32,000 nucleotides of DNA from Chlamydiota bacterium (lineage in GTDB: Bacteria > Auribacterota > JACPWU01). Both the position numbers and the translations under genes were made by a program. Positions within the stretch are counted from its first letter, which is position 1. Each line of letters opens with the position of its first letter. Below the pieces are notes generated by a model. That model searched no databases and was not told the DNA's origin. It saw only the letters and a list, made by a program, of their open reading frames with translations. Positions 6,001-20,300 of this stretch are shown here, piece by piece. The DNA is taken from positions 60,001 through 92,000 of the forward strand of contig JACPWU010000003.1 in NCBI GenBank assembly GCA_016196885.1, read 5' to 3'.

Positions 6001-9000
6001 TTGATTCTCGAAACCCTTCCTCATTATCTCAAGGTTTATTTGAAGGCTTTGTTTTTAAAAGAAAACATGGATCGTGAAAAAGAGCATGCCCTTGCCCCCT
6101 TAAGAATGAATCTCTACATGATTCCACACCGTTTTGTCATGCTCATTTTCGCGATCTTTTACGGTGTTCTCATCACCATGCACGTATCCTCATCTCCCTG
6201 GTTGACAGCCCTCGTTACGGCGATGGTCTCACTTCTTTTTTGGTCCAATGCCTATGTCTCTGTCACAGGTGTGGGGGATGTGATCATTGCGCCCCGTACA
6301 TTGAATGAACATCCCTGGATTAAGAACCATGGCATTATGCCCATGAAATACCATAGTGCCCTCTTTGTTCCCTTTATAGCAAGTTCTAAGACGGATGCCC
6401 GAGATGTTCTTATGTTGGTTCATCGCTCGTTCCTTGAAAATGTAAAAATGTGTGAGGTAACCAAAGATGACCATGGCACTTACACCATTCAACATTTTGA
6501 TGGAACAAAGGATCCAGATGTTCCGATCGAATTCTTTAATCAGAAGTTGCGGGAAAGGATACAGGGTCTTAGTCGAGGGGGAGAGGACTTCATCAAAATT
6601 CCAGACCCACGAGATCAGCTCAAGGTGATTATCAACAGTCAGGTGAAGGATAAAGAGGTGATGCAATTAGAGATAGAATTGATCAAGAAATTTCAGGAGG
6701 AATTGGGAGACGATCGTTTTATTTGGATACATCGCAACATGGATGATCCTTTCTTGAGAAAGCCCGGAACGATGTATGATGCCCTTGCGGGGTTACTCTT
6801 AAAATATTTTCGCCCCGCGGTCTATACAGGTTCTGTCATAGATAAGAGAGAAAAAATCATCAGAACAGATAAAGAAAGTGGAAAAAAAGTAGAGCTTTTA
6901 AGGTATGACCCTTCTGACCGGTATGGGCTGAGGGAACGGAGGGTGTTCAAAGTGGAGGGAATGAAAATCAGCGACGACGCGGATTTCTCGTTTCACATGT
7001 ATTTCTATGGGGATGATCCGGAAAATCCCCTTTTTGAAATTGAGGAAGGTGCACTTTATGAAATCCAATACCGTGAAGAAGGGGATAGAACAATCAGAGA
7101 ACGTGTTCATCTTGCGCATGAACATGAATATGAAATCAGCGATTTAGATCTTAATCATGTTTCGATTATGAGTCGTGAAACAGGAAAGCCTTTCAAGGAT
7201 TCAAGGGGAAGGGTTTTAACACCTCGTCCTCTACGCTTTTCAATGGACAGCATACTTGAATATAAAGATTCCGAAGATCGTGCTGTCAAATTAAGCATTG
7301 ACCCCGAAGGAAATACTCTTTGTCTGGAAGATTATACGGATCCTAGAACCAATATTTTCTATCCCAGAGGAAGTATTTATTCCAGGGCAGGTACGCATGA
7401 GTTGGATTTCACTTATCATCTTTATAAAGTAGATTGGAAAACGGACAAGGCTACACTTGTAAGAGATGAAGAGAATAAACCCCTCCGTGTGGACATTGTG
7501 AAAAGAACCTATACTGCAAATGAAAATCATGTGGACTTGCAGTTCTTGAATGATTTTAAAGATACAGAACCCGCTGTCTTTTTAAGGGTTGGAGATTTAA
7601 CAACACCTAAAGGCGAACTTCCTAAATACAAAGGTCAAGAATTAACCTCTAAAAATTTTGAGTATAGTGGCGATGTTCTGGAAGAAGGGAAAATTATCAC
7701 TACCAAAATCATTGGTTCTAAGCAGTTTCGACTGAGAGCGGCAAGAGATCAAAATGGAAATTTGATTCCTGAAAATGAGGTAGAAATTTTATATTTTGAT
7801 TTGGTTCCTGTGGATGGTGAAAACGCAAAGCCAGAAATTAGGGCGGTTCGAATCGCAACCCCAGAAGATTTGCTTCATAGAACAAGAAAAGGAGATTTAA
7901 TTTCTGGAGGGAAGATTAACGAGGAGGTTGAGAAGAAGCAGGCTGTTTTAATCAAAGAAGACGGTTCTCTGGAATTTGGTGAAAATTTTCTCGGGAATGC
8001 TCTTAAAAAAGGTTTATGGAAAACCACGTATGGAAATGGGTTTTTCTTGAAGGATAGAAAGGGAAATTTGGTTCAGGATCCGAATCAAGAAGGGCGCCCC
8101 TTCATACAAGGACAGTTTTTCGGTGAGGGGGATTGGAGAAGGCAAAATCCCTTGCTCCCTATATGGAAGGTAAATCCAGATTTGATTGGAGGCTTTCAAG
8201 AGAGTGGAGTTTTAACGGCTAAAGAAGCTCGCCAGATGTCAGAAAAAAATACGGTGCTTGGAGATGTTCACAGTCTTCACATGGGGAAACGAGGGGATGA
8301 AAAGCATTATTTAATTTCTCGACTAAAAGAGGGTGGAGCCCCTACCCCTGGAAGACAGGTCCGAGGTGGCTTTTTGGTGAATGAAGCAGATGACTATTTT
8401 GAAGTGACGCGAGAGAATTTAAGTGAGGCCACGCGTAAAGGAAATGATACGGGGGGCGCTAGAAAAGGTGCTTTGGTCCACAAACGCATCGAGCTAAAAA
8501 ATGGTCGATGGATTGAGGTTTGGAGTGTCGTGGCTGAGCAGGCTAGAGATTTTGATCTCTTAAAGCCAGTAGAAGATAAGGATACAATGATTCTTCGTGA
8601 GAAAGGTAAGCCTCCTATTCTTGGTAAGAAAGGCAAAGAAGGAAGTGGCCTTTTTTATCTTCATAACGCTCAAACAGGGCAAGTGGTTTTAGATCTTGCA
8701 GGCCATAAAGTCGAAGCGGATCATGCGGTAGAAATTTTTCATCAGCCTGATGGGGATAATGAGTTTCTGATTGGGACAGTCCATTATGTAGGATCCAGGC
8801 AGGCCCTAGAACGCGAATTTGACAATGACTACAGCATTTTCCAAGAGGAATTGCCTTTTGACCTGGGCAGTTGGGGAAGGGCACATTACCCGACTACGCA
8901 AACGATTGCACAAAATAAACTATTTTATCCCCTGGCATTGATGTGGAGACTCGCAGGTAAAACTGCCTTTTTTGGAAAGGGATCTCACACGGGATCTACC

Positions 9001-12000
9001 TTCCTTCGCAGAATCATTCTGATGGAGGCGACCAAAGCCATCCAGAGAAGTCACGATCATACAGAGGCCGGGGCGGGGGGTTCCGCTTTGATTGAAGCCG
9101 TAGAGGCAGGAAGGCCCAGGCGCGGGGTCGCGTGGGCTTACCGAATTGTCTTCTTAGGGATAGGTCTTTTAGCTTCTGCATTTGCCCCTTCTTATATTTC
9201 AAAACCGGTATGGATTATTTTTCTCCTCATGGTCAATCCCTGGTGGCTTAAAAATGAATTTAAACATAAAGGAAAGCAAATGGAGGAGGCCCATTCGAGC
9301 TATACTTTTTCAAAGGCCCGTTTACAAGAGTGGCGAGTCGGGGACAACAAGATTCAGCATATCAAAAATCTTTATTATCGGGCCTTTGTCTATTTTATCA
9401 GAAGCTATACCCAGCCTCGCAATTTCCCTAAGGCGATTAAAACCCTCTTTCAGGCCTTTAAGGAGACTCCCACGCTCATCGAAAAATTTATCACCTGGAT
9501 GAATTTTATGGGCATTCAAAATGATCCAACCTTTGCGGGTTGGCTGGGTCTTTTATTTTTTACGGTTTTTAAGCCAGGCATGAGGGAATTGGCTTTCCCC
9601 TGGCTCTCAGACCTTCTCTTTATCAGCGCCATGATGCTTCTCATCAGTGTGACCTATCAAATCCGTCCCGTTCTGCGTAGAATTTTTAGGGAGCCATCTC
9701 CTAATATGAGAGTTTGGCTCTTGCGTACGGGGCGCAATTTGCTTGCTTTTGTCATCCCAATTATTATTGCTGTTTTGGTGGGTGATTTCGTCTCCACAGA
9801 GTGGACAGGCTTAACCCAGGATCTTTTTGACGGCCTAAGCCACTTTTTCAGAATGAGTTATAGCTTAACAGTAGGTCAAGGAAATCGTTTCTTAAGCATT
9901 AATCCGTGGATTCATATATTTAACAGCGTTCCCTATGTGCTGACCATGGTTTTAGGCTGGGGCTTCACATCCGTAGGAAGAGACATTGTCCGTGAATTTT
10001 ATCGCGGCATGTATTTGGTGTTCTGCAGTACATTGGTCCTCATCCGTAATTTATGGAATGTGACAGAAGCAGGGATCGTGGCCCTCAAATCACATGTGAG
10101 ATCTATTCCCGCAAAATGGACCACAGGGTCGGTGATCGAAGGATTTATGATGGATAATCTTATTAAAACAACCGACTTCTTCAAAAATGGTCTACCCCTT
10201 TTCTTGATTGGGTCAGGGCCTGTTGTCCTAACTGTTTTAGGCATTATACAACCCACCTATTTGGGTACTTCTTATACCATTATTATCTTTTCATTGATGC
10301 TAGGCTGGCTGGCGGATAAATGGACTACCGATTATGGCATGAAACGCTTCTATAGATTTCCTCAAATGGGCGTGGCGGAGGACCGCATTCAGGAACTCGT
10401 GTTTAGTTTGGAGGAATTCAATCTGAGATATAAGAACAGTGATAAAGATGAATACGCCTTCCGCCGTCGTATTCGTCAAATCGGAGGTCCCGTCCTTGTG
10501 TTTAGTAAGGACAAAGGTTATGAATTAGGAGAACGAGATTTAGCGCGACTTTACTTATCTAAAAATTATTTTCTGGCAGAGCAAGAACTCCAAGAAATAT
10601 TTCCCCTTTTATACATCCAAGACAATCTTCTCGATCAAAATATTAATAGAATTCTAAAAAGAATCAATAAGCGTAGAGAGGGACATGTTGAACTACTTCA
10701 GAAAGAAGTCTTGGAAGCCATTTTAAATATATTGAGAGGCAAAGAGAATGAAATCAAGGAAACCGATTTACGTCCTTTTCTTGAATATTTAGGAGAGATC
10801 TATGATTTAAACCATCGTGATGTAGAGCGTCTGTACGCTTGGTGTGCGATGAATTTTGAAAAATTTAACAGGCGGATTGTCTCAACATTTTTTACGTGGC
10901 CTTATGAGCCTGAGCTAAGAAAATGGTTAAAAGATCGAAAAGAGAAAAAGTCTTGGCAAACCATCGAAGGCAAAACGCTTGACCAAAAATTGGAAATTTT
11001 TGCCGAGCGCTTTTTGTTTAAGCCGGGCGTCTTTGCGGGTCACACCCGATTCTGGCAATATCCCCTGGCCCAGGATGGACCCTGGTGGGCCTATTTATTG
11101 GTTTTTTCAGCCGTCTTTGTCCCTGCCTGGCTTTTCTTTTGTGCCTATCTTGGATTTTTCTCCTTCATCGTACCTCTTTCTTTTGCCCTCTTGGCGACCT
11201 TGGGCATGTTAGGATCTGGACAATACTTAGCACTCAGCATAAAATCCTTGGCTCATCCTGAAGCCCGTAAACATCAGGTTTCCTTGCCCCGATATCTTCT
11301 TCAAACTATTTTTAAGAAATTGATGTTTTGGAAATCTGGATCTGAAAATGTGATGACCACCCTATTCTATTCAGTCCTTGCACTTCTAAAGATAGCAGCC
11401 ATCGGCCTCCTTTTTAATTTTAGCCATGTGAGTGCAATCATTTTGTTTGTTGCAGGCACCATTGCCATCATGTCCTGGGCTATGAAGCGTTCTCACAAGA
11501 TTCTCTTTGCCGTTTTTGGAACGGTCTTTACCTTTGGCCTTTTTGCGGAATTTCTTCTCATGGTTGAAATATCGGTGGGAGCAACCCTCTTTTTGTCAGC
11601 CCTTCCAACCCTTCCTTTGGTTTTTGCCGCAATCGCCTTATATCTCCTCTATCATATTCTGAATTATTACTTAGCTCGAACGGACGAATTCTGGAAGAGC
11701 GCTGAAGATGAAAAAAGGATGGATGCTATTGTACAGTCAGGGTTGGGACTCAGAGAAGAACTTGAGCCTGGATTTCAAGAAGGAAATAATTTTCGCACAA
11801 CGAACCCAGACACTCAGCTCTTGATTGACCTTGGTATTTTGGAAGGGGTGACCTCGTGGAACCGTCAGGGCGGTGGGGGATCAGATTCTGAGCCTTCTGA
11901 CGTTCCCCCAGCTCCCTGGGCGCCTCCTTTAGGCGAGGTCGAAGGTGGAAGGCCGAGGGTGGAAGGAAAATCACACGAGCGAGAAGTTGTTGACTCAGGT

Positions 12001-15000
12001 GTCCAGGCTCCAGCTTTGAGCCCAGTTCGTCCAATGACCTACGAGAAATCTGCTGGAATTAATGTCCCTCACATCATGACCCTGGATGAAATTCGAAAAG
12101 CCATTGCTCAGATTCCTCGGGATTCTTACCCGGGACTAGGGTTGGCAGCATATGCAGACGGTCTTTTTGTTTACTTGGAGGTACGTCCATCTGTACGGGG
12201 AGAGGGATGGGAGATTCCAGATGTGGTGGAGTTTTTTGTTGAGGATGAGAGGGTGTATTTTGCTACGAGTTGGAAGGGATCGGTATTGTATTTCTACTGT
12301 TCTAATCAAGTGGATGAGGGTGGAGATTTGTTGCCTGCTGCTCCTATTGAAAGAGACGCCTTTGAAGCGGCTCGGGCGAGGAGCCAAGGGCAAGCGCCTT
12401 CTATAGAAGAAGGCGGATCGCCAGCTCCAACCGCTTTACCTGCCTCATCGGGCCCGACGAATCAGGTCGCTACAGGGGAGGGTTCGGAATCAGTTTCTAG
12501 TGAATTAACTCCCCCGGCCCCTCCTAAGAACGGTGAGTCTATAAGCGCAGGAAACCTTTTGCCTGATCAAGGAACGGAAAATCCTTCACTTGATTTAAAA
12601 GCAGAAAACCCTCCCCTGGGTGTAAGGGGAGATGGAGGGGTTAGTGCATTAGCATCTGAACTTGCCCATACATCTAGCGTAGCTCAGCCCTCAAGAGTTG
12701 AATATCTCTCCCCTGGATGTGATGTCTCTGCTTTGATTGCTTCAGATGAAGCTTATGTTTCAAGAGAAGGCTTTCGGCATGAAGACTTGGCCCTACCTTT
12801 AGAGGAAGCCATTAAGCATGCTCTGAAAAGCGTAGTAGGCGAGAGCAATTTTATTTTTGGGAAAGAGACCTATTTTATTTCTTATGGGGGTATAAATTTT
12901 GTTGTGAATGACGGATTAGGAAACTCGTTACAGGCGCGAAGATTTTATAGGGTTACGCGGATAAAGACGTTGGAAACAATTCATTTTCTGGATGTGGCGC
13001 CGCGATTGATCAGAGAACATCATTTGTATGGAGATCCTAAAACATCCTATCGTGTGGAGCCTGCTCAAATTATTGAAATGTTTTATCCTTCAGAATTTGA
13101 TCTTGGGGGAGGGGGGGATGAGGGGGGTGATGGATCTCTTGAATCCAATGAGGATTTTGAAGGTGAGAGTTCTTTGGCTCCTTTAGAAGCAGAAGATTTG
13201 GTGATGGAGGCGTGGGGTCATTGGGGGGAGTTTGGTTCATTGAATAGATCCCCTGAAGGGACTGTACAGAGAATGGGGCGGATTCAACATGATATGACCT
13301 TTGCCCGTGGTTTTCTAGCCAGGGCAGAAGGGGCTTCGGATGTTTCGAAAAGCTTGGTTTTGTTAAATAATGCAGAAGTGCTCTTAAATTCGGCATGGGA
13401 ATCTATATCGGAAGCTGATCAATTAGGCCTAGATCTTGACCTGCAGTTAGGGGTGGATGTTCTTAATGAATTGCTGCGACTCGAAAAGATCAGAGAAAAG
13501 ATTTCTGGGGGAGAAGCTTCTTCAAAACTCAATGGGCATAAAACGGTAACTCCCCCAGCCCCTCTTACTCCAAGAGGGGGGAAAACTGTGGATCTAAGAG
13601 CGGGGAAAGCTGCAGATCTAAGAGGGGGGGGAACTGCAGATCAGGGTTCTTTAAATTTTTCTCGTACTTTAAGTATGGATCCCACGATTTTGCTCGTCTT
13701 ATCTCAAATTTTTTATGGATTTGTCTGGGTTAGTTTGGGGGTTCTCTTACTGGCAGGTTTAATCGGATGGTATGTGGGGTCTCATTCTCAAAACGAAAGT
13801 CCCAGTTTGAAAAAGATGGCAGGGATTGCGATTTTAATCTTGGGGCTTTTTGGGATTGCGATTTCTGCTTCTTCTGACCTTTCAAATCAGCCTTTGGCTG
13901 CATTGCTGCCTCAGCAGACTTCTGATCTGCAAGTAATTGCAAGTAAAACAGAAACTCCCAGAGTTGACGGACCAGTGATAGAAGAGAAAAGAGATGAACT
14001 AAAGCTAGTTGAGATTGCTCCACCTCTTAAGTTTGTAGAGCAGCAAACTTATACATGTTATTTGATTGCTTCTCCAAGTGATGAAACAGAAGAGGGAGAT
14101 GAAGATGATGAGGAGCTGGATGAGATGACCCCTGTAGAGGCAGTGGCAGATGATGGAAGTGAACCAGATTATTTTGATATTGATTATTATGCAAGAGGAG
14201 CATCATCTTACACAATTTCTTATCGTTCTCACATGTTCGGAGTTTTTCCGTATGAGATCTCGGGAAAAGGGGATGCCGAAGATGAAAATATAGAAGATCA
14301 AGAAAAGGTCATCCCCGACTTCATGACCCCCCCTCCCGAAATCATCGAAATGATTATTCAAACATTTGTGAGAGAAGCCAAGGGGAATGGCCTGGATGAT
14401 GCAGCCTTCAAAGAAGAGGCTGAAAAATTGGCTCGGGCCTTGCTCAGACCTGATGTGACGCCTCAAGATATCGAAGCAGCTGCAGATGCGATGATCGCGT
14501 TTGTTGCTGAAGACGGGGTTGAAAGTTCAGCTCAAGGAGCCAGTCTCGATGAGAGTGCGTTACGAAAAATGAAAGAAGATATTTTGCCGATTCTTTTTTA
14601 TATGGCAGATCTTCCTTATGCCGAGTCGCTCATTTTTTCTGTGAGCGATGATGGGTTGTCTCCGGAGCTTTTACGCCGTATGAATGTTTCTAAGGAGATG
14701 CTCAGAAAAGAGGTGGTTGTTGATCTAGGGGGTTCTGTAACCATCGATCTTACCCCGATTTCTCCGAATCTTTTCTCGATCGTCTTAAAAGAAATTATGT
14801 CTGCTAATTCTGAATGGATGAAAACAGGAGTTCTTCCGATTCACATTGCAACTTCTAGTACATTGCCAGAAGGCCTTGAGCTTGTCGCCATTTTTGATCG
14901 CGATAGGAACAAAATCAAAGTTTTCCCGATGACCACCCTGGGGGGTACGCCTCCACTGATCCTCACAAATCGCCGAACACAGACTGAACGTATCCGAGAT

Positions 15001-15039
15001 CAGGCTGGAACTGCTGGTTTACGTGGAAGGCAGTATTAA
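1..15039 (+). CDS. Giant multi-pass membrane protein, 5'-partial (>=5,012 codons in window)
   Basis: This frame is open from nt 1 (codons cgc cag gat precede the track's GTG at 10, no stop) to TAA at 15037-15039. Composition is protein-like throughout, with four hydrophobic helix clusters. Only short shadow ORFs occur in other frames. Confidence 0.85.
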   Translation, partial: RQDVALAFVITLRRQGLSTENAFAHLQDLQRAVERSQSSLNYLESLLGSETSNQVREAVERGDRQALLLLKREIMDGSKVCIDPNVDRYLISLLQFISSEGAVHMDLMLDKMAEVLKAHRKSHLSLQTDLVPGLQIWQAEMSVYGWGELEKVFGKDILQQIQEAVRLDKPEDVAKITLSPDIRHRAEEAMVGSSRGRPVEQYIRYVLLILEIEKAPLTLPFHEVTFFGEDFFKRGASPTFILDYFKARTYLRSSYSLYHRAAGNFESLEPFIEEVDRENKTIMGSQKERRLFVQPLTPPEKLSPGEEGSYLYRFEMGLDSYFDMGNHDIQMSALIVRGEREMLWKFEEMRVKHIPELREQLAEARERGDEKLIEQLEKALEKWKEARIVPFTYREVKEFLEAIKKGEMDKHEIDLFFETALYFQTKLLDSGLVTLDYFNGVSYLVNHFWNEPGLFEWLMQYRTETKIVELWTQEPDKKDLGPEGNRWKIYSLLGRMIAQGTPSSELVERLVNLDLELSGKGVPNDRSKTRMKEGIEAFQILRDVMIEMLGPSLHNQEKKTAFRRLIEELLESPSSLGPSLENWLWGVLESRIGITEAQDWKLNKERLSQVRKDDEKTKADTADRANAIMRERPNLLMKTDLKKSDLRLLGMDPKTADEFWQYLTQSGFLEPNRELDGLLAGNVSQDLRIRLVADERLGGELEALRVGMSEEMREEMTRLLGSPLMQGLDDVLFSSVNAVEELLSAKIPEPLKRYLPVTLLSSMTALEKVKWIREEFLSDPATFELVMSRSVQVQPREPGMEHALEQLKTILLSKNASLKGIFEKHADAVGRIQGALRDAGPSSREYLEGLLALVLPDKLEQSHGKDVVNDNDPFKPLKPLQFTLKWERKLSPELRLHLGQLFEDLIRHREEFEIQPFTDENRSSIRQILGIASTDRNQAFEGLKAYCRDEAVITRALDRAVEGDIEGGLALLEPFAKEDWILRGVFRLKAEKADVQTAVAILDQLYPGFHIDPGYLETLETRMKEGYRASDIRHYLEHRERANALLLVMHNLDDEQVKRSLLRLEGRFPDNFSELFPEERKKFDDAVDGPLKTEITQLAYLVEAYRKLPYRGPRVQFKKTGILYPTYHPEVRVLMALPENELEAKLVQALQDSLGIRLTPEQLERLKMRDISNGDSGEVVNRILNFGNDTADVLRKLSYSNFGVDWRVKLMLSNLEGLDREMPDTVRDELNSALGEDVVHQIETALQMTRTSADSLHQSHISMSEPLRTELTGLLGAPLLDSMNVIFASETVSLGELGEGKGLEPLKPLLGETLVSSIQAVLLDHTIPDPQKITTLRNILSRDEHGATILRMVSLFPGDLAIPNTLDKLHEILPDLDNNSLTILVHLRTLLDPDYFNRLRVLVLADTTACDVIRYHRMDTKDPAYEYFRALRVIVDDKSRVDLLKEIVLDQKFSSPQEGKKISPPKLSEQARQWLSLTMLLTEGSYRPELYNLIRENPATVVSRMRGMILVDQASVDIMANAYVREGLSYHDARQLRDGCTILSEAILSKHKDLRIGSKAPELTEMVYYLSTVLQDSVWGQPVVPTPVVTPSMIREVVEEWFGTIKADLNLSEADYKALIDQVTKNALTPDGKKVRVAPHEIRLVVENARAIWTGAKFTGEEFFPDKPNPKAEKAWKLLRIYWEQENKGRPRTFGDVFIHALRSGKTNLLEYLPQEDLASRSLPQEEELEQYLERNAEILKSVGFGDLHISDIREHELKMNDAMEKVWTYLLKDDLEKKYGDKIETPKGSDEKIPKILLGMGAVGWGVGILANVKTSVKSGRISKILKGSAWLTGIAGRLLFRVACHFLIAFAAAYLFDLSFERGYLDSFLESLGDFFGFIPPKFETGSLPRIFYVLKFMSLNVYKNGLPLLAILVSFFSIYAGGLVAHGLFDRKNQLKNRTRKIVHTAIEILLPVGVFWGLVFTESFGPIGPAFEALGHLVTLTLIFILTLYHTGAIRKLILETLPHYLKVYLKALFLKENMDREKEHALAPLRMNLYMIPHRFVMLIFAIFYGVLITMHVSSSPWLTALVTAMVSLLFWSNAYVSVTGVGDVIIAPRTLNEHPWIKNHGIMPMKYHSALFVPFIASSKTDARDVLMLVHRSFLENVKMCEVTKDDHGTYTIQHFDGTKDPDVPIEFFNQKLRERIQGLSRGGEDFIKIPDPRDQLKVIINSQVKDKEVMQLEIELIKKFQEELGDDRFIWIHRNMDDPFLRKPGTMYDALAGLLLKYFRPAVYTGSVIDKREKIIRTDKESGKKVELLRYDPSDRYGLRERRVFKVEGMKISDDADFSFHMYFYGDDPENPLFEIEEGALYEIQYREEGDRTIRERVHLAHEHEYEISDLDLNHVSIMSRETGKPFKDSRGRVLTPRPLRFSMDSILEYKDSEDRAVKLSIDPEGNTLCLEDYTDPRTNIFYPRGSIYSRAGTHELDFTYHLYKVDWKTDKATLVRDEENKPLRVDIVKRTYTANENHVDLQFLNDFKDTEPAVFLRVGDLTTPKGELPKYKGQELTSKNFEYSGDVLEEGKIITTKIIGSKQFRLRAARDQNGNLIPENEVEILYFDLVPVDGENAKPEIRAVRIATPEDLLHRTRKGDLISGGKINEEVEKKQAVLIKEDGSLEFGENFLGNALKKGLWKTTYGNGFFLKDRKGNLVQDPNQEGRPFIQGQFFGEGDWRRQNPLLPIWKVNPDLIGGFQESGVLTAKEARQMSEKNTVLGDVHSLHMGKRGDEKHYLISRLKEGGAPTPGRQVRGGFLVNEADDYFEVTRENLSEATRKGNDTGGARKGALVHKRIELKNGRWIEVWSVVAEQARDFDLLKPVEDKDTMILREKGKPPILGKKGKEGSGLFYLHNAQTGQVVLDLAGHKVEADHAVEIFHQPDGDNEFLIGTVHYVGSRQALEREFDNDYSIFQEELPFDLGSWGRAHYPTTQTIAQNKLFYPLALMWRLAGKTAFFGKGSHTGSTFLRRIILMEATKAIQRSHDHTEAGAGGSALIEAVEAGRPRRGVAWAYRIVFLGIGLLASAFAPSYISKPVWIIFLLMVNPWWLKNEFKHKGKQMEEAHSSYTFSKARLQEWRVGDNKIQHIKNLYYRAFVYFIRSYTQPRNFPKAIKTLFQAFKETPTLIEKFITWMNFMGIQNDPTFAGWLGLLFFTVFKPGMRELAFPWLSDLLFISAMMLLISVTYQIRPVLRRIFREPSPNMRVWLLRTGRNLLAFVIPIIIAVLVGDFVSTEWTGLTQDLFDGLSHFFRMSYSLTVGQGNRFLSINPWIHIFNSVPYVLTMVLGWGFTSVGRDIVREFYRGMYLVFCSTLVLIRNLWNVTEAGIVALKSHVRSIPAKWTTGSVIEGFMMDNLIKTTDFFKNGLPLFLIGSGPVVLTVLGIIQPTYLGTSYTIIIFSLMLGWLADKWTTDYGMKRFYRFPQMGVAEDRIQELVFSLEEFNLRYKNSDKDEYAFRRRIRQIGGPVLVFSKDKGYELGERDLARLYLSKNYFLAEQELQEIFPLLYIQDNLLDQNINRILKRINKRREGHVELLQKEVLEAILNILRGKENEIKETDLRPFLEYLGEIYDLNHRDVERLYAWCAMNFEKFNRRIVSTFFTWPYEPELRKWLKDRKEKKSWQTIEGKTLDQKLEIFAERFLFKPGVFAGHTRFWQYPLAQDGPWWAYLLVFSAVFVPAWLFFCAYLGFFSFIVPLSFALLATLGMLGSGQYLALSIKSLAHPEARKHQVSLPRYLLQTIFKKLMFWKSGSENVMTTLFYSVLALLKIAAIGLLFNFSHVSAIILFVAGTIAIMSWAMKRSHKILFAVFGTVFTFGLFAEFLLMVEISVGATLFLSALPTLPLVFAAIALYLLYHILNYYLARTDEFWKSAEDEKRMDAIVQSGLGLREELEPGFQEGNNFRTTNPDTQLLIDLGILEGVTSWNRQGGGGSDSEPSDVPPAPWAPPLGEVEGGRPRVEGKSHEREVVDSGVQAPALSPVRPMTYEKSAGINVPHIMTLDEIRKAIAQIPRDSYPGLGLAAYADGLFVYLEVRPSVRGEGWEIPDVVEFFVEDERVYFATSWKGSVLYFYCSNQVDEGGDLLPAAPIERDAFEAARARSQGQAPSIEEGGSPAPTALPASSGPTNQVATGEGSESVSSELTPPAPPKNGESISAGNLLPDQGTENPSLDLKAENPPLGVRGDGGVSALASELAHTSSVAQPSRVEYLSPGCDVSALIASDEAYVSREGFRHEDLALPLEEAIKHALKSVVGESNFIFGKETYFISYGGINFVVNDGLGNSLQARRFYRVTRIKTLETIHFLDVAPRLIREHHLYGDPKTSYRVEPAQIIEMFYPSEFDLGGGGDEGGDGSLESNEDFEGESSLAPLEAEDLVMEAWGHWGEFGSLNRSPEGTVQRMGRIQHDMTFARGFLARAEGASDVSKSLVLLNNAEVLLNSAWESISEADQLGLDLDLQLGVDVLNELLRLEKIREKISGGEASSKLNGHKTVTPPAPLTPRGGKTVDLRAGKAADLRGGGTADQGSLNFSRTLSMDPTILLVLSQIFYGFVWVSLGVLLLAGLIGWYVGSHSQNESPSLKKMAGIAILILGLFGIAISASSDLSNQPLAALLPQQTSDLQVIASKTETPRVDGPVIEEKRDELKLVEIAPPLKFVEQQTYTCYLIASPSDETEEGDEDDEELDEMTPVEAVADDGSEPDYFDIDYYARGASSYTISYRSHMFGVFPYEISGKGDAEDENIEDQEKVIPDFMTPPPEIIEMIIQTFVREAKGNGLDDAAFKEEAEKLARALLRPDVTPQDIEAAADAMIAFVAEDGVESSAQGASLDESALRKMKEDILPILFYMADLPYAESLIFSVSDDGLSPELLRRMNVSKEMLRKEVVVDLGGSVTIDLTPISPNLFSIVLKEIMSANSEWMKTGVLPIHIATSSTLPEGLELVAIFDRDRNKIKVFPMTTLGGTPPLILTNRRTQTERIRDQAGTAGLRGRQY
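5390..6275 (+). other. Hydrophobic helix cluster 1 of gene 1 (~8 predicted TM segments)
   Basis: Translated runs include ILLGMGAVGWGVGILANV, LFRVACHFLIAFAAAYLFDL, GLPLLAILVSFFSIYAGGLVAHGLF, LLPVGVFWGLVF, LVTLTLIFILTLY, FVMLIFAIFYGVLITM and LTALVTAMVSLLFW. Confidence 0.6.
9127..10314 (+). other. Hydrophobic helix cluster 2 of gene 1 (~8 predicted TM segments)
   Basis: Translated runs include VAWAYRIVFLGIGLLASAFA, VWIIFLLMVNPWW, FAGWLGLLFFTVF, LLFISAMMLLISV, LLAFVIPIIIAVLVG, VPYVLTMVLGWGF, LPLFLIGSGPVVLTVLGII and IIIFSLMLGWLA. Confidence 0.6.
11080..11675 (+). other. Hydrophobic helix cluster 3 of gene 1 (~6 predicted TM segments)
   Basis: Translated runs include WWAYLLVFSAVFVPAWLFFCAYLGFFSFIVPLSFALLATLGML, LFYSVLALLKIAAIGLLF, AIILFVAGTIAIMSWA, LFAVFGTVFTFGLFAEFLLMV and LFLSALPTLPLVFAAIALYLLY. 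Confidence 0.6.
12506..12643 (+). mobile_element. MITE-like element copy A, in frame inside gene 1
   Basis: The left end is TAACTCCCCC (12506-12515). The right end is TAAGGGGAGATGGAGGGGTTA (12623-12643), preceded by its partner arm AACCCTCCCCT (12607-12617). The same ends occur at 18605-18753 and 30790-31064. Span is 138 bp = 46 codons. Confidence 0.5.
13548..13647 (+). repeat. Partial copy of the element's left end, followed by a 24-nt tandem repeat (x2.8) containing a G8 run
   Basis: TAACTCCCCC lies at 13548-13557, followed by the hairpin CCCCTCTT/AAGAGGGG (13560-13567 / 13573-13580). The 24-nt units lie at 13579-13602, 13603-13626 and 13627-13647 (partial), encoding GKTVDLRA/GKAADLRG/GGTADQ. 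The G8 run is at 13625-13632. Confidence 0.6.
13687..13870 (+). other. Hydrophobic helix pair near the C-terminus of gene 1
   Basis: Translated runs are ILLVLSQIFYGFVWVSLGVLLLAGLIGWYV and MAGIAILILGLFGIAISA. Confidence 0.55.
14957..15033 (+). repeat. 77-bp direct repeat R1 (coding 3' end of gene 1)
   Basis: 75/77 identical to 15702-15778, with mismatches only at 14963/15708 and 14981/15726. Repeat period is 745 bp. Confidence 0.95.
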
Positions 15040-15051
15040 GATTCTTCAAAA

Positions 15052-15062
15052 TGTGTTACAAT
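15052..15062 (+). promoter_or_regulatory. Extended -10-like box TGTGTTACAAT upstream of the DUF433 gene
   Basis: It matches the TGnTAnAAT pattern. It is 9/11 identical to TGTGATAGAAT at 15787-15797, which sits in the equivalent position after repeat R2. Confidence 0.3.
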
Positions 15063-15092
15063 TGCCTCGTTATTTTGAGGAGAGGAGAGTCT

Positions 15093-15317
15093 ATGAATCC
15101 CTGTATAGAAATTAATCCACGCGTTTGCAGTGGGAAGCCAGTTATTTCGGGAACGAGAATTCCTATCACGGTCATTTTAGATCAACTGGCGGAGGGTCTT
15201 TCTCTTCAAGCACTTCTAACAAAATATCCTGAACTTTCTTTGGAACAAGTGACGGGTGTTTTACGCTATTGTCATTCTGTTATAGAGCATACAGAACTAG
15301 AGAGGGAAATCATTTGA
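15093..15317 (+). CDS. DUF433 (COG2442) family protein, putative antitoxin
   Basis: The translation NPRVCSGKPVISGTRIPITVILDQLAEG...YPELSLEQV carries the GKPxIxGTRIxV core typical of DUF433. A purine-rich RBS GAGGAGAGGAGAG lies at 15077-15089, ATG at 15093 and TGA at 15315-15317. Confidence 0.8.
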   Translation: MNPCIEINPRVCSGKPVISGTRIPITVILDQLAEGLSLQALLTKYPELSLEQVTGVLRYCHSVIEHTELEREII

Positions 15318-15688
15318 AGTCTTTGCATTTATTGTTGGATCAAATGATAGATTCAAATGTTGCAAACGAACTTTCTCAAGAGGGGTATGATGTCCTAAGA
15401 GTGTCTCAAGTCGGTATGGCGAGATCAGATGATGAAGAGATTTTCAGTCTTGCCATTAGAGACAAGAGAATTTTGATCACATTGGATGAGCATTTTGGAG
15501 ATTGGGCGGTCCTTCCTTTGAACCAAATACATTCAGGAGTGATTCGAGTGAGGGTTAAGCCTACTTCTGGACGTGCGATTGCTTCTCTCTTAATTCCTTT
15601 TTTAGATAAACACAAACAAAAAAGTTTTAACAATTATCTTGTTATTATTGGGGTTTCAGGTTCTCGCTGGGTTAAAACTGTTGCCTAA
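15314..15688 (+). CDS. DUF5615 / PIN-like (COG4634) protein, putative toxin
   Basis: The translation LLLDQMIDSNVANELSQEGYDVLRV...SDDEEIFSLAIRDKRILITLDEHFGD follows the DUF5615 pattern. A TTG start at 15314 overlaps the upstream TGA (TTGA), with a GAGGGA RBS upstream. An alternative ATG lies at 15344. Stop is TAA at 15686-15688. Confidence 0.75.
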   Translation: MKSLHLLLDQMIDSNVANELSQEGYDVLRVSQVGMARSDDEEIFSLAIRDKRILITLDEHFGDWAVLPLNQIHSGVIRVRVKPTSGRAIASLLIPFLDKHKQKSFNNYLVIIGVSGSRWVKTVA

Positions 15689-15701
15689 CGGCTCAAGCAT
15701 T

Positions 15702-15778
15702 TGATCCCCACAAATCGCCGAACACCGACTGAACGTATCCGAGATCAGGCTGGAACTGCTGGTTTACGTGGAAGGCAG
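15702..15778 (+). repeat. 77-bp direct repeat R2 (non-coding copy of the gene 1 terminus)
   Basis: 75/77 identical to R1. It is followed by atgtaa (15779-15784), so it would encode ...LRGRQM-stop if it were joined to gene 1. Confidence 0.95.
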
Positions 15779-15786
15779 ATGTAAAC

Positions 15787-15797
15787 TGTGATAGAAT
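15787..15797 (+). promoter_or_regulatory. Extended -10-like box TGTGATAGAAT upstream of the MNT gene
   Basis: It matches the TGnTAnAAT pattern and lies 64 nt upstream of ATG 15861. It is conserved with the box at 15052-15062. Confidence 0.3.
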
Positions 15798-15860
15798 GTT
15801 AAGAGTAGCCAGGGAAAAGGCCATTCTGAAGATTCTACAATATTCTGTGAGGATGATGCG

Positions 15861-16190
15861 ATGTTTCTGAGTCCGCAAGAACGCTCTGCGTTGCAAGATT
15901 TCAAAAAAGTTTTACTAGAACGCTTCCGTTCGCAAGTGAGCGAAATATTTCTTTTTGGTTCCAAGGCGCGTGGCGATTCGAAAAGTGATTCGGACATTGA
16001 TGTTTTGGTGATCACCCAGCAAGATGACTGGAAACTCAAGGATAAAATAGGACGACTTGCAACGGATATTCTTCTCGACGAAGGTATTTATTTGTCTATT
16101 AAAGTATTAGGGCAAAAACATTATCAATACATGAAATGGTTGGAGGCGCCGTTTATTAAGAATGTTTTAAAAGAGGGTATTCTTGTGTGA
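15861..16190 (+). CDS. Minimal nucleotidyltransferase (MNT, Pol-beta superfamily), putative antitoxin
   Basis: LFGSKARGDSKSDSDIDVLV is the GS-x(n)-DxD nucleotidyltransferase signature. A GAGGA RBS lies 7 nt upstream of the ATG. The TGA stop overlaps the next start (GTGA). Confidence 0.85.
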   Translation: MFLSPQERSALQDFKKVLLERFRSQVSEIFLFGSKARGDSKSDSDIDVLVITQQDDWKLKDKIGRLATDILLDEGIYLSIKVLGQKHYQYMKWLEAPFIKNVLKEGILV

Positions 16191-16600
16191 ATATTGATGA
16201 AAAAATTCTCGAATATATTCGAGAGGAAATGAAAAAAGCAGATCGTGCCTTGAAATCGGCTCAAAAACTTTTGTCGGAGTCCCTGACTGAGGATGCTGTT
16301 TCCCGTGCTTACTATGCAGTGTTTCATGGTGCTCGTTCGGCACTGATGTTGAAAGGAATTGAAACGGGTTCCCATAAAGGTTTAATCAGTCAGTTTGCAA
16401 TGCATTTGGTGAAGCCAGGTTTGATAGAGGTTGAATATAGCGATATTTTGAGGCAGGAAAAAGAGGATCGAGAAACAGGAGATTACGAGACTTTTGTCAC
16501 CTTCAGCAGTGAAGAAGCTATGAAGTTGGTGAACGATGCTCAAAAATTTGTCTTGCGAATACGAAAATTTCTGCAGGACCAGTCTGGAATTGTCCTTTAG
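16187..16600 (+). CDS. HEPN domain protein (PF05168-like), putative toxin partner of the MNT
   Basis: AVSRAYYAVFHGARSALMLKGIETGSHKG and EDRETGDYE match the HEPN layout found next to MNT genes. The GTG start at 16187 is coupled to the MNT stop. Stop is TAG at 16598-16600. Confidence 0.8.
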   Translation: MNIDEKILEYIREEMKKADRALKSAQKLLSESLTEDAVSRAYYAVFHGARSALMLKGIETGSHKGLISQFAMHLVKPGLIEVEYSDILRQEKEDRETGDYETFVTFSSEEAMKLVNDAQKFVLRIRKFLQDQSGIVL

Positions 16601-16664
16601 GGATAAAGATGGAAAATTTTTATAGGCATATGCACTTGGCTCCAGTATTCTTGATCCCTCAAGC

Positions 16665-16720
16665 GTAGTCGCCCGATTTATCGGGCAATCCATGTATGGC
16701 CCCATAAATGGGGCGACTAC
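16665..16720. repeat. Double-hairpin palindromic (REP-like) element, copy 1
   Basis: GTAGTC [GCCCGAtttaTCGGGC] aatccatgtatg [GCCCCAtaaaTGGGGC] GACTAC. The reverse-complement copy at 30815-30859 has the 12-nt spacer reduced to 1 nt. Confidence 0.85.
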
Positions 16721-16755
16721 AAATGGACGACACTTTTCCCCAATCTTTTCTCGAT

Positions 16756-16809
16756 TTGCCCAACGGCAACGGGTCGAATCCGAGAACAAGCGGGGACTGC
16801 TGGTTTACA
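16756..16809 (+). repeat. Degenerate third copy (R3) of the gene 1 terminal repeat
   Basis: 16775-16809 matches 15734-15768 at 29/35 positions (cgaatccgagaacaagcggggactgctggtttaca). Similarity in the 20 nt upstream is weaker (about 11/20). Confidence 0.6.
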
Positions 16810-17222
16810 TCTCTCCATTTTAATCTCTTTAATCCTCCTCCTTTAAGCCAGATTTTACAATAGACGCGAGAACTCAAGAGCAAGAGCTTGAGCCAGACAG
16901 GCCTTTGCAGTCCCTGTGGGATTGGCCTGAAGAAAGCGCAGGTATGCATAAAAAGATGCCTGTCGAGCATTTCTGAAGGCCAAGTACCCCAAGATGTTGC
17001 GTCGAATTCCGCGGCCTATTGCAAAATCTGGGTTTAAAGACGAGATCCTTCGTCGCAAAAGAGCTCCTCAGGATGACAAATGAGGGAGGTTCTAGAACGG
17101 ATCTTATTTTTAACTTTCTCTCCTAGAGTAACTTAAATTATTAAAAACTCCTCATTTTTCTTTTGACCTTCTGGCCCTTTCAGATGTCTTTAATGTTGAA
17201 AGCTGTTATAGCAAGGTACCTT

Positions 17223-17330
17223 ATGACAAGTTTCAATGTAAATTATGAAAAATCCTTTCGGAAATTCGTTTCCACTCTCCTTTTAATCACTTTTTCATTT
17301 ACGTATCTTGTTCAAGATACGGGATTTGCA
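17223..17330 (+). other. Signal peptide / signal anchor of gene 2
   Basis: In MTSFNVNYEKSFRKFVSTLLLITFSFTYLVQDTGFA|QE there is a basic n-region, a hydrophobic core and an xFA-Q junction. Confidence 0.55.
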
Positions 17331-20300
17331 CAAGAACTCAATACAGCGTATAGCGTTCAGCGGACAGCGGACAGAAAACCAGCGGATACGATTTCTCCTA
17401 AATCAGCTCTGCTTGAAGTTTCTCATGGTGCAGAGGTTTCCATCCCCGCAAACTTAGGCGATGTCATTGACCGCTATGAAGGCAAAGACGACCGCATGAT
17501 TATTCAGATTCAAGACGTGCACTGCCATTTCGAGGCCCAGTCTAATACCGCTAAAATTATTTCTGACCTTCTCCAGAAACATGGGGATCACGGTCTTAAG
17601 ATGATCGGTCTTGAGGCGGCAGAGGGTTCTGTGGATACAACTCTTTTGACTTCCTATCCTGATAAAAAACTTCGAAAAGTCCTCGCCGAATACCTCATGA
17701 AAAAAGGAAAAATTTCCGGTGCTGAATATCTTTCTATCATTCAAGATAAACCGCTTCCTCTTGAAGGCGTAGAAAACATGTTTCATTATTTTGAACATCT
17801 CTTCCAATTTGACCGAGGGTTGGATGTAAAAGACAAAGCCTTGCCCATTTTGGACAAAATAGAAAAGGCAATTACAGATCTGCGCGAAAAAATTTATTCC
17901 CAAGAAGTGTTGGAAGTTTTGAACAAAGAGAAGTCCTATTTGGAAGGGGATACTCAGATTGATGAGTATGGAAAATATTTGGTAGACCAGGCGTTAACTC
18001 TTAAGCTGGATGTTGGGGGGCAGAAAAATTTTCAAGGCATGATGAAAGTGGCAGATTTAGAAAAGCAAATAGATCTTAAAAAAGTAGAAGAGGAAAGAGT
18101 TCATGTCCTTGAGATTTTAAGCAGAAAGCTCGTGAAAGAAGAGATGGTAGAACTGATGACGAAGAGTTTGTATTACAGACTCGAGAAAATGGATGCGTGG
18201 GAATATTATGAATATTTAAAGACTGTCGTGAGTCCCGCGGGGACTATAAAAACATGTCGTGAGTCGTTAGGGGTGAGTGGTCAGAATTCAACGTTAGAGA
18301 AAACTTATCCCAACCTCTCAAAATATATCCAAATGACTGAAATATTTCACGAGATCAAGAGTGATGAGCTTTTGAAGGAATGTGAAAAGATATCAGAGGA
18401 AGTACAGGATAAGTTGTTAAAGACCAAAGAAGAAAAGGCGCTCAGGCAAATTGAGAAAGACTTTATTATTTTGAGAAACTTTTTTGAATTGGAGATGAAG
18501 AAGAGTGAGTTTCAATATTATGTGGAGAATAAGGAGAGGGTTTCAGCAAAAAACATAGTGGATGGGTTGGAAGAAATCCAGGATCCAGGGTCCAGGGTCC
18601 AGGGTAACTCCCCTCGGTCCCCTCTTAAACTAAGAGGGGAGGAAAAACAAAAACAAGAGCAAACAAAGAGCGCTTTTCCTATTTTAAAAGGGGAGGAAAA
18701 GCAGAGATGGGTAACGTCCCCTCCCCTTAGTTTAAGGGGAGATGGAGGGGTTACAAATGACGACATCACATTCCTCGACTCTCATCTCAAAGACCTCGAA
18801 CAATTCTATCGCTATTCAGACAATCGTGAAGAGGCGATGGTCCAGAACACGCTCCGGAAAATGAAAGAGAACGAGAGCCCGATTGCGATTCTATACGCGG
18901 GAGGATTTCATACGGATGGACTCACGAAGCGCTTGGAAGAAGAGGGCGTGTCTTATGTCGTTGTTGCTCCCAGAATCACACAATTCAAACTCAAGACCCC
19001 GTATTTATCTATTATCAAGAACGAGCCTTCGAAATTAGAGAAAATGTTGATGGATTTGGAGAAGAAAGAAAAGGGGACGATGGCGACTCTACCGTTAGAG
19101 GGAGATCTAAAAACAGAAGTTGCTGCTCTCAGTGGTTTGGAGGCAGATGATCCAGCACGAGTGAATGGAGAGGAAACGATTCGGCTTCAAATAGCAGCTC
19201 TTAGATCGGCTTTGATCGTACGTGGGCTGCTAAATTCCGATATTTCGGCAAATGATATTACTTTCACTCGAGAAGGTGACACCGTCACTATTCTCATTTC
19301 TGGCATTCCCAGATTTCAAATCACCCTGAATTCTGAAAATAAAAATAATCCTGAAAAGTTGGTGGAGAGTATTGTGCCTATTGAAGTTTCTGCTCCGACT
19401 GAGCAAACATCGGAGTGGGTAGGTGGCCCTCTTCGTAGTTTGGACGGAAGTTATCAGGCGTTAGAGAGTGAGGAGATTAAGACGTTGAAAGGTCTTGCAA
19501 GCAAAAAAGGGGGATATGCGATTCCTTCCAGTACGGAAACGTTTGGTGATGACGAGGTGGTTTGTCGCGTGGTGGATTATGATGAAAAGAAGGGAGACCC
19601 TGTTTATGATATTTTTCAGCCGCACAGTATCAAGGCCTACCATTATATGGCGGCAGCCGTTCCAAATTCTGAAAGACCAGGTTTAACAAGAATAGTGGTT
19701 TATGCGTTTCTCCCTCGTAGGCTTGACGAAAGGGAATACGCTTTTCGCAAGAGGCATGAAATTTTAGAATCGCTTTGGGAGTACAAGCTTAAAAAAGAGG
19801 GAATAGCCTACCGGAACCGCCTGGAAAAGAATCCTTCAACTCCTCAACCTCTCTGGATGCAATTAGGCCTTTCTCGGGATGTTGCGGCTCATATCCTCGC
19901 TTGGGGACAGCATGTTCTCGAAGAGGGTTGGGATAATATTGAACAGTGCCCCTTCTTGAAAGAAGAAATTCAAAAATTAAATCTTGCCCAACTTCAGGCC
20001 ATTTATTCTGACGAAACCATTCAAGAGAGAAATCGCATTCATAATCCTTTGAGAAAACATTATCTTTCAGGTTTTAACGATGCCGATTGGCAGCGACTTG
20101 AGACCTTTGAAAATTCTGTGAGGGATTTGGCCAGAAGACTTACTTTTCCTTCAAAGTTGGTTCAGGATTTAGATAATCAGGGAAGGGGTCGAAAAGTTTT
20201 GTGTCTTGGAGCAGGTGGAGACTATCAAGAGGCAAATTTCTTTAGCTCCCGTAATTGTGGTGTGGAAGTGGTCAAAATGAGAGGGGACGCAGAAGGTGAT

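Follow-up and report, generated by a model that had tools for sequence, protein, structure and literature searches.

Gene tails and toxin-antitoxin operons downstream of a giant gene

We analysed a 32,000-nt stretch of the metagenome-assembled genome of a Chlamydiota bacterium (GCA_016196885.1, contig JACPWU010000003.1, positions 60,001 to 92,000), referred to here as the window and numbered from its first nucleotide. In this stretch, two small toxin-antitoxin (TA) operons follow the 3' end of a giant gene and are bracketed by copies of that gene's tail. The 3' part of the giant gene (gene 1) occupies positions 10 to 15039 of the forward strand and comprises the last 5,009 codons of a 9,014-codon open reading frame (ORF), which is also the length of the full product in the public record. 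A Pfam search found no domain in gene 1, and homologue searches returned no detectable homologue. An AlphaFold model of its last 250 residues was uninformative (mean predicted local distance difference test score [pLDDT] of 44).

Direct repeat searches and BLAST identified two nearly identical copies of the gene 1 tail on the forward strand. The first (R1, 14957 to 15033) is translated (..LILTNRRTQTERIRDQAGTAGLRGRQ) and, followed by TAT TAA at positions 15034 to 15039, completes the ORF with the C terminus RQY. The second (R2, 15702 to 15778) lies downstream of the first operon, is displaced and untranslated, and is followed by ATG TAA at positions 15779 to 15784, which would give the terminus RQM. 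The copies agree at 75 of 77 positions (BLAST E of about 1e-32 to 5e-35), and the longest exact run is 52 nt. The original prediction had given the same coordinates, counts and terminal codons. R2 carries two substitutions relative to R1, at 15708 and 15726, each of which makes a proline codon; three codons differ between R2 and R1. On the right side, one codon is wholly different (TAT versus ATG), a common TAA stop follows, and the sequences diverge afterwards. Nothing of the repeat extends beyond the stop except a 13-nt promoter-like motif, AGATTYTNCAATA, which occurs four times in the window, always within positions 15039 to 17029, at sites that include one after R1 and one before the MNT start described below. 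On the left side, the edge is abrupt, with no similarity beyond it (P = 0.89). This abrupt edge, combined with identity up to the stop, is the pattern expected if two alleles of a single gene tail were each followed by different DNA.

R1 and R2 bracket a 668-bp cassette (cassette 1, 15034 to 15701) and R2 is separated from a third, partial repeat (R3) by a 0.95-kb cassette (cassette 2, 15779 to 16733), both on the forward strand. Pfam analysis bore out the predicted content of each: cassette 1 encodes a DUF433 antitoxin (15093 to 15317; E = 1e-20) and a DUF5615 PIN-like toxin (15344 to 15688; E = 3.6e-20), and cassette 2 encodes an MNT nucleotidyltransferase (15861 to 16190; E = 4.6e-10) that overlaps a HEPN protein (16187 to 16600; E = 7.5e-18) by 4 nt. 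Both operons are intact and all four domains score above the Pfam gathering thresholds. With adjacent small genes, family domains, intact frames and overlapping or closely spaced genes, both cassettes have the layout predicted for type II/VII TA operons. They hold TA genes only, without recombination or transfer genes of their own. The genes of cassette 1 have 59 nt of noncoding DNA before them and 13 nt after them, and 133 nt of noncoding DNA follow the HEPN gene at the right end of cassette 2. The MNT protein also matched the NCBIfam MntA-like model, below its cutoff, and MNT/HEPN matched the PADLOC candidate defence system models PDC-S09 and PDC-M05. There were 108 HEPN homologues, and the MNT partner adjoined HEPN in every homologue context examined; 58 homologues of DUF5615 were listed. 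Apart from the 13-nt motif, the cassettes share no sequence. In each, the repeat is closely followed by an extended -10-like element (TGTTACAAT at 15054 to 15062 in cassette 1 and TGATAGAAT at 15789 to 15797 in cassette 2), read by eye and not called by a consensus scan. The DUF5615 stop codon is in frame with the R2 tail copy (15686 to 15784), and read-through would add the tail peptide to the toxin; this shared frame, for which the chance is one in three, is probably a coincidence.

The third repeat had been described as a 29/35 match, which a direct count reproduced, and it is a genuine repeat, with 27 of 31 positions identical at 16778 to 16808. The description of R3 as a degenerate copy of the same 77-nt site, however, did not hold. 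A 60-nt segment (block B', 16749 to 16808) aligns to R at 72%, and R3 reaches further left than first described. An exact 14-mer at 16742 to 16755 is shared with gene 1 positions 14767 to 14780, within a 22-nt direct repeat at 86% identity. We refer to the gene 1 codons around PNLFSI that make up this repeat (14759 to 14780, forward strand) as block A and to the second occurrence (16734 to 16755) as block A'. Block A' is joined to block B', so that the untranslated R3 relic (..TTLFPNLFSICPTATGRIREQAGTAGL..) spans 16734 to 16808 on the forward strand. Its blocks are colinear with gene 1 and lie in one reading frame (TTLFPNLFSICPTATGRIREQAGTAGL versus TPISPNLFSIV...TQTERIRDQAGTAGL in gene 1), but between the two homology blocks the offset changes by 189 nt, in frame: a 63-codon stretch of gene 1 (14781 to 14969, forward strand) is missing from R3. 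BLASTP of the two R3 blocks against gene 1 gave E values of 2e-6 and, for block A, 0.004.

The substitutions that separate R3 from R1 and R2 are those of a coding sequence. In the 15-codon TQTERIRDQAGTAGL block, 9 of 12 fall at third codon positions (P = 0.004), as do all five in the 11 codons RIRDQAGTAGL. This bias indicates that R3 and R1/R2 diverged as translated sequence and not by decay in place. R3 is thus a piece of a homologous but diverged gene end that has 63 codons fewer than that of gene 1, and R3 and R1/R2 would have diverged as functional coding sequence in different lineages. The upstream block and the 63-codon difference suggest that an older and a younger insertion have different breakpoints, the older at block A and the younger at the left edge of R, which is not what a single fixed attachment (att) core predicts. 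The analysis confirmed that R1, R2 and R3 are genuine scars, left where DNA was inserted on two separate occasions at the 3' end of gene 1.

Base composition differs between the two cassettes. The G+C content at third codon positions (GC3) is 0.30 in cassette 1, about 1.7 standard deviations (SD) below the host mean of 0.395 (SD, 0.055), and 0.39 in cassette 2. Low GC3 in cassette 1, host-like GC3 in cassette 2 and repeat identities of 97% versus 72% fit one recent and one old acquisition.

Assembly support, recombination sites and related islets

Support for the array came from several assemblies. When three overlapping fetched loci were combined, window positions 5093 to 26600 were 100% identical to contig JACOUD010000054.1, which apparently stops near window position 26955 and belongs to GCA_016178005.1, a metagenome-assembled genome deposited under the name 'Chlamydiae bacterium'; the second, longer contig on record measures 105,051 nt. 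Two short contigs, independently assembled from other sequencing runs, were also 100% identical to parts of the array. Logan contig L004 extends from gene 1 across R1 and enters cassette 1, and Logan contig L002, from another run, continues from R2 into the MNT/HEPN cassette. L002 begins at 15749, which is the start of the first 31-mer that contains the R2-specific base 15779. An assembly graph with k = 31 is expected to break contigs where a repeat ends on the right and two paths lead out of it, and this accounts for the start of L002. The junction between DUF5615 and R2 (15625 to 15748) is covered by the long contigs only; its presence there implies that it exists in the reads, as an assembler needs such reads. 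Apart from this junction, the independent short assemblies agree with the structure of the array.

As originally predicted, no integrase, transposase or integron core site is visible in the 32 kb: domain searches of the giant ORFs and of the small ORFs tested found neither a recombinase nor a transposase domain. The repeats were also compared with known classes of recombination site. An integron attC site was rejected because single-strand folds of R1 and R2, on both strands, showed no hairpin (z of -0.02 to +1.43). An integron core was rejected because GTTRRRY is absent from the boundaries (CAG|TATTAA, CAG|ATGTAA and CATT|TGATCC), and an integron cassette array because no intI with attI was found (no integrase domain in any ORF tested in the 32 kb). 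With regard to Xer/dif sites, palindromes of the 11-6-11 form occurred at background level only (8/11), and the one at 14980 in R1 falls to 7/11 in R2. Rfam searches, at gathering and E-value thresholds, and ARAGORN revealed no known RNA or tRNA target. A transposon was set aside because there are no terminal inverted repeats at the cassette ends and because the duplication, at 77 nt with two mismatches, is not of short, fixed length; this is in keeping with the earlier view that 77 bp is far too long for a target-site duplication. Finally, with only 59 and 13 nt of flanking noncoding DNA, cassette 1 has no room for arm-type sites.

Relatives of the locus were sought widely. A degenerate pattern for RIR[DE]QAGTAGL was absent from 185,579 species genomes (GTDB), from JGI metagenomes and from viral contigs, and in the same three collections repeat R was never found next to other cargo. 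The C terminus of gene 1 and the N terminus of gene 2 had no relative in the GTDB genomes or JGI metagenomes. A word-indexed protein search and an exhaustive HMMER search were negative, but they also failed to recover the query's own protein, and these libraries may therefore lack very long proteins. Nothing similar was found among plasmids and phages, and look-ups of a 67-amino-acid (aa) antisense ORF and a 162-aa ORF found nothing on record. The nearest HEPN homologue was 74% identical and the nearest DUF5615 homologue 58% identical, and hence no donor was found.

MNT/HEPN cassettes of this type do lie between direct repeats in other groundwater genomes. In an Omnitrophica genome of the same accession series (locus L012, positions 1382 to 3335), MNT/HEPN and a 187-aa ORF are flanked by a 43-nt direct repeat at 98% identity. 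The right copy forms the 5' 40 nt of an intact tRNA-Pro(GGG) gene and ends in the anticodon region. In other groundwater assemblies (loci L014 to L016; L014, 3486 to 5237; L015, 1325 to 3076), an islet is flanked by a 73-nt repeat at 96% identity that ends at the same ...CTTGCATGGGGTG. The islets are 82% identical to that of L012 at the nucleotide level and have different neighbouring genes. These tRNA-Pro islets, found in two different groundwater genomes, are about 1.7 kb long with an ORF of 167 to 187 aa, and neither the L012 islet nor those of L014 to L016 contain an integrase. Each tRNA-Pro locus has a second MNT cassette just upstream. In L012, an 18-nt repeat of the tRNA 3' end also lies 130 nt downstream, as a micro-islet. 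No flanking repeats accompany the related cassettes at rpoD/tRNA-Val (L007, after the tRNA-Val gene) or in the interval from purS to purQ (L010). Repeats of half a tRNA gene that end in the anticodon loop are a classical signature of an integrase, and the tRNA-Pro boundary looks integrase made. Recombinase-less TA islets flanked by duplicated gene ends therefore recur.

Neighbouring genes and palindromic elements

The right-hand neighbour of the array is a further giant ORF on the forward strand (gene 2, 17163 to 27248; the public call starts at 17223). The possibility that gene 1 is paralogous to genes 2 and 3, or shares its tail with them, was examined and no such relationship was found; the sole resemblance is an 11-mer at the gene 3 stop (E of about 1). 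Gene 3 ends in ..GKQM-stop with CAGATGTAAA (30765 to 30775), the same 10-mer as the end of R2, a match that alone is not significant (E of about 1). The ORFs at 17163 to 27248 and 27100 to 30774 overlap by 149 nt in different frames and have a 119-residue repeat in common (34% identity); a frameshift or a sequencing error may have divided what is a single giant gene. Across the three giant ORFs, Pfam recognised a single domain, a UDP-glucose pyrophosphorylase-like segment (E = 5.6e-10) at residues 1447 to 1587 of gene 2 (window positions 21501 to 21923).

Several palindromic sequences are present in and around the array. A 56-nt double-hairpin palindrome (16665 to 16720, no strand assigned), which resembles repetitive extragenic palindromic (REP) sequences, was identified at the right end of cassette 2 by inverted repeat searching and DNA folding. 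A second copy lies in the opposite orientation at 30814 to 30860, and the 23-nt arms are 100% identical between copies, with the consensus GTAGTCGCCC(G/C)ATTTAT(C/G)GGGC...GCCC(C/G)ATAAAT(G/C)GGGCGACTAC. The DNA fold z scores of the two copies are -4.6 and -6.9. The palindrome has no T-run, belongs to no Rfam family and was not found in viral contigs. Directly after R3 and upstream of gene 2, a 210-nt segment (16835 to 17044, no strand assigned) is bounded by 29-nt inverted repeats with 83% complementarity, both arms of which carry AGATTYTNCAATA; a miniature inverted-repeat element and a divergent regulatory region are both possible readings of it.

A separate family of palindromic elements, with ends TAACTCCCC...GGGGAGA(T/C)GGAGGGGTTA and fold energies of -48 to -126 kcal/mol, is found at 12506 to 12643, 18605 to 18753 and 30790 to 31064, with a partial left end at 13547. 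Two of the copies (138 and 149 nt) are translated through within the ORFs of giant genes 1 and 2, reminiscent of the Rickettsia palindromic elements. The third, of 275 nt, is intergenic and encloses the REP-like palindrome. Within it, positions 30900 to 31040 are G+C rich in a region of 40 to 45% G+C and contain an internal direct repeat, CGAGGAAGTGGTTG, about 44 nt apart; the best Rfam match to this segment was to an unrelated microRNA model (E = 0.02). Just after the partial TAACTCCCC element end inside gene 1 are three tandem 24-nt units, TC(C/T)AAGAG.GGGG.AA.CTG..GATC (13569 to 13642).

Origin of the array

The original prediction had proposed att-like site-specific integration. Its insertion junctions at the 3' end of the gene, the restoration of the reading frame at R1 and the occurrence of at least two events all stand; the treatment of R3 as a copy of the same site does not, and R itself has no features of such a site. 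From the repeats, their boundaries, the coding-type divergence, the intact TA operons and the lack of site-like features or of a recombinase in the 32 kb, we infer a serial, tail-anchored recombinational acquisition of two self-contained TA operons, driven by homology, a history that we consider about an even bet. The order of events, the foreign donors, the enzyme system and the argument from addiction that follow are reconstructed.

In each event, the incoming DNA would have consisted of a homologous copy of the tail together with a TA operon. It could have entered as a circle by a Campbell-type single crossover, or as a linear fragment by a homologous crossover combined with an illegitimate join; the product would be the same. 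The incoming tail would become joined to the gene, and the resident tail would be pushed downstream, where it persists untranslated. On this reconstruction, the original gene would have ended ...PNLFSIC PTATG RIREQAGTAGL..., the tail now seen as R3; a native tail without the 63 codons would read PNLFSIC-PTATGRIREQAGTAGL. We propose that block A marks the crossover region of the older insertion. A crossover at or to the left of block A (14759 to 14780, matching 16734 to 16755), with a diverged homologous 3' end, would have brought in block A, 63 further codons, the RQM-stop tail, MNT/HEPN and the palindromic element, and would thereby have duplicated block A and displaced the shorter native tail as R3. 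In the younger event, a crossover inside the 77-nt R would have brought in DUF433/DUF5615 with the RQY-stop tail and left R2 behind. The repeat identities of 72% and 97%, together with GC3, fit MNT/HEPN as the older acquisition and DUF433/DUF5615 as the younger one. The empty site for cassette 1 would read as the gene 1 sequence, R and then ATGTAAACTG, and a circle or tandem junction of cassette 1 would read ..GCTCAAGCATT, R and then TATTAAGATT. Direct repeats with 52 identical bases would permit cassette 1 to loop out, and post-segregational killing by the TA pair would select against its loss. From the established behaviour of TA modules, such addiction would explain why the surviving cargo is TA only.

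We consider ordinary homologous recombination most likely, ahead of a dedicated site-specific recombinase, because 52 nt of perfect identity suffices for RecA. The duplicated segments differ, the homology is plain gene sequence and nothing resembles a recombinase site, and for these reasons we rank homology-driven recombination above site-specific recombination in trans; nothing shows that a dedicated integration enzyme made the gene-tail copies. Several observations nevertheless weigh against recombination by homology. R2 and R3 cease to be colinear with gene 1 at points no more than about 13 nt apart (14957 to 14970), which would suit a fixed crossover site, yet R3 continues leftward into block A, with the 63-codon difference. 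Block A today offers only 22 nt at 86% identity, which is short for RecA. Site-specific capture of this type of MNT/HEPN cassette does seem to occur, given the half-gene repeats at tRNA-Pro. No relative of the locus was found for gene 1, gene 2, R or the cassettes in any collection searched, and with it no donor, empty site or variant array. The homology model also leaves the origin of the first tail-cassette-tail arrangement unaccounted for.

The chief alternative is that small circles integrated site-specifically at the gene's 3' end by tandem accretion and that R1, R2 and R3 are the resulting attL, attI and attR sites, with the recombinase encoded elsewhere or lost, as in CIME-like or minimal islets (CIME, cis-mobilizable element). 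We regard this as a serious rival, although less probable than recombination by homology. Elements that target 3' ends likewise leave an identity block running from an abrupt left edge to the gene stop, with the ORF restored, and the near-coincidence of the points at which R2 and R3 part from gene 1 would follow from a fixed site. The integrase-less MNT/HEPN islets between repeats of the tRNA-Pro(GGG) 5' half (43 nt at 98% and 73 nt at 96%) in two groundwater genomes offer a parallel, as do the tandem CIMEs and microCIMEs documented at the 3' ends of rpsI, rpmG and fda (PMC7563491). Set against these are the 32 kb without a recombinase, the lack of an inverted-repeat core or hairpin in R, the want of room for arm sites in cassette 1, and the fact that the repeat was never found beside other cargo; moreover, the extra upstream block of R3 and the 63-codon difference suggest that the same site was not duplicated at the older junction. 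A wider form of this idea, in which the gene tail here and the tRNA-Pro anticodon region in neighbouring genomes both serve as attachment sites of one cassette-capture system for sub-kilobase TA circles, with a recombinase acting in trans or none at all, is doubtful in our estimation.

Local duplication and artefact fare worse. The regular head-to-tail order of the direct repeats would be produced by tandem duplication of the tail and a TA operon, through unequal crossing-over or replication slippage, with one operon replaced later; since the cassettes share only the 13-nt promoter-like motif, a second replacement event is needed, and the coding-type divergence of R3 and its 63-codon difference are left unexplained, so this origin is improbable. 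An assembly chimera, in which two strains carrying gene 1, R and one or the other TA operon were joined through the shared repeat, has to be considered for a genome assembled from a metagenome: contigs built at k = 31 break at the 52-nt exact repeat, as the start of L002 precisely at the repeat edge shows, and the DUF5615-to-R2 junction has no independent short-contig support. However, for any assembler to produce it, reads should lead out of cassette 1 and into R2, with the R2-specific bases 15708 and 15726, two long contigs of different length carry the array, and the flanking junctions are reproduced in other runs, which makes a chimera very unlikely. Least probable of all, with only a slim chance, is that R2 and R3 are silent donor cassettes for gene conversion of the giant protein's C terminus, like pilS-type silent copies. 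They are indeed promoterless, start-less tail copies downstream of an expressed gene, and R2 differs at three codons, but two or three variants represent little diversity, and R3 has lost its end and adjoins a palindromic insertion.

Among known systems, integrons share with this array a tandem series of small co-oriented cassettes with a repeated separator, and TA cassettes are common in chromosomal integrons. R differs in having neither an attC hairpin nor a GTTRRRY core, intI/attI is absent from the 32 kb, and the repeated sequence is a translated gene end. The tRNA-Pro islets (L012 and L014 to L016) are alike in TA family (HEPN 64 to 65% identical), in their lack of an integrase, in the second TA cassette in tandem and in 43- to 73-nt direct repeats that derive from the target gene's end. 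They differ in their target, a tRNA gene with its fixed boundary within the anticodon loop, in having the intact gene copy on the right-hand side of the islet and in an extra ORF of 167 to 187 aa. The dif modules, which are Xer-dependent elements, are likewise arrays of recombinase-less modules, including TA, bracketed by repeated sites (PMC6449649). The dif sites, however, are 28-bp XerC-6-XerD palindromes of alternating orientation, whereas R is a 77-nt direct repeat without a palindrome.

The architecture appears closest to that of CIMEs and microCIMEs and is also close to that of orphan cdiA/rhs modules. In streptococci, rpsI, rpmG and fda carry tandem CIMEs of 1.2 to 13 kb and microCIMEs of 130 to 220 bp at their 3' ends (PMC7563491). 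As in CIMEs, the cargo here is small and without recombination or transfer genes, it is flanked by direct repeats of which one, R1, restores the 3' end of a protein gene, and the units are in tandem. The array differs in that no cognate integrative and conjugative element, integrative and mobilizable element or integrase is known, in that the repeats are a 77-nt coding tail without a recognisable core and with two breakpoints, in the minimal size of the cassettes (0.67 and 0.95 kb), which carry TA genes only, and in that the target is an orphan giant gene. With the orphan toxin C-terminal/immunity modules of cdiA and rhs it shares the arrival of new 3' ends with a linked protective gene pair and the accumulation of older, start-less 3' fragments downstream of a very long gene; for those modules, homologous recombination in shared upstream sequence is the proposed mechanism (PMC9086364). 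The displaced pieces here are tails of 26 to 40 codons, not toxin domains, and the TA operons that form the cargo are autonomous, having starts and promoter-like elements of their own. Assignment to the class of contact-dependent growth inhibition (CDI)/Rhs orphan modules was rejected, as gene 1 has neither a Pfam polymorphic-toxin domain nor a pre-toxin motif, only short tails remain as relics and the cassettes carry whole TA operons.

As a single instance, the array does not alone establish a new class of mobile element. If the reconstruction is true, it would be a clean, datable record of the entry of TA operons into a chromosome, with two displaced tails of different ages and the frame repaired each time. 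The C terminus of an orphan 9,014-residue protein would have been replaced at least twice, and the locus would illustrate why TA modules survive as cargo between direct repeats. Should the gene tail and the tRNA-Pro anticodon region instead prove to be attachment sites of one capture system, uncultivated groundwater bacteria of the Planctomycetes-Verrucomicrobia-Chlamydiae group would possess an integron-like platform for addictive cargo in which the recombination site is a translated gene end. Together, the array and the tRNA-Pro islets point to a population of recombinase-less TA islets of less than 2 kb in groundwater bacteria.

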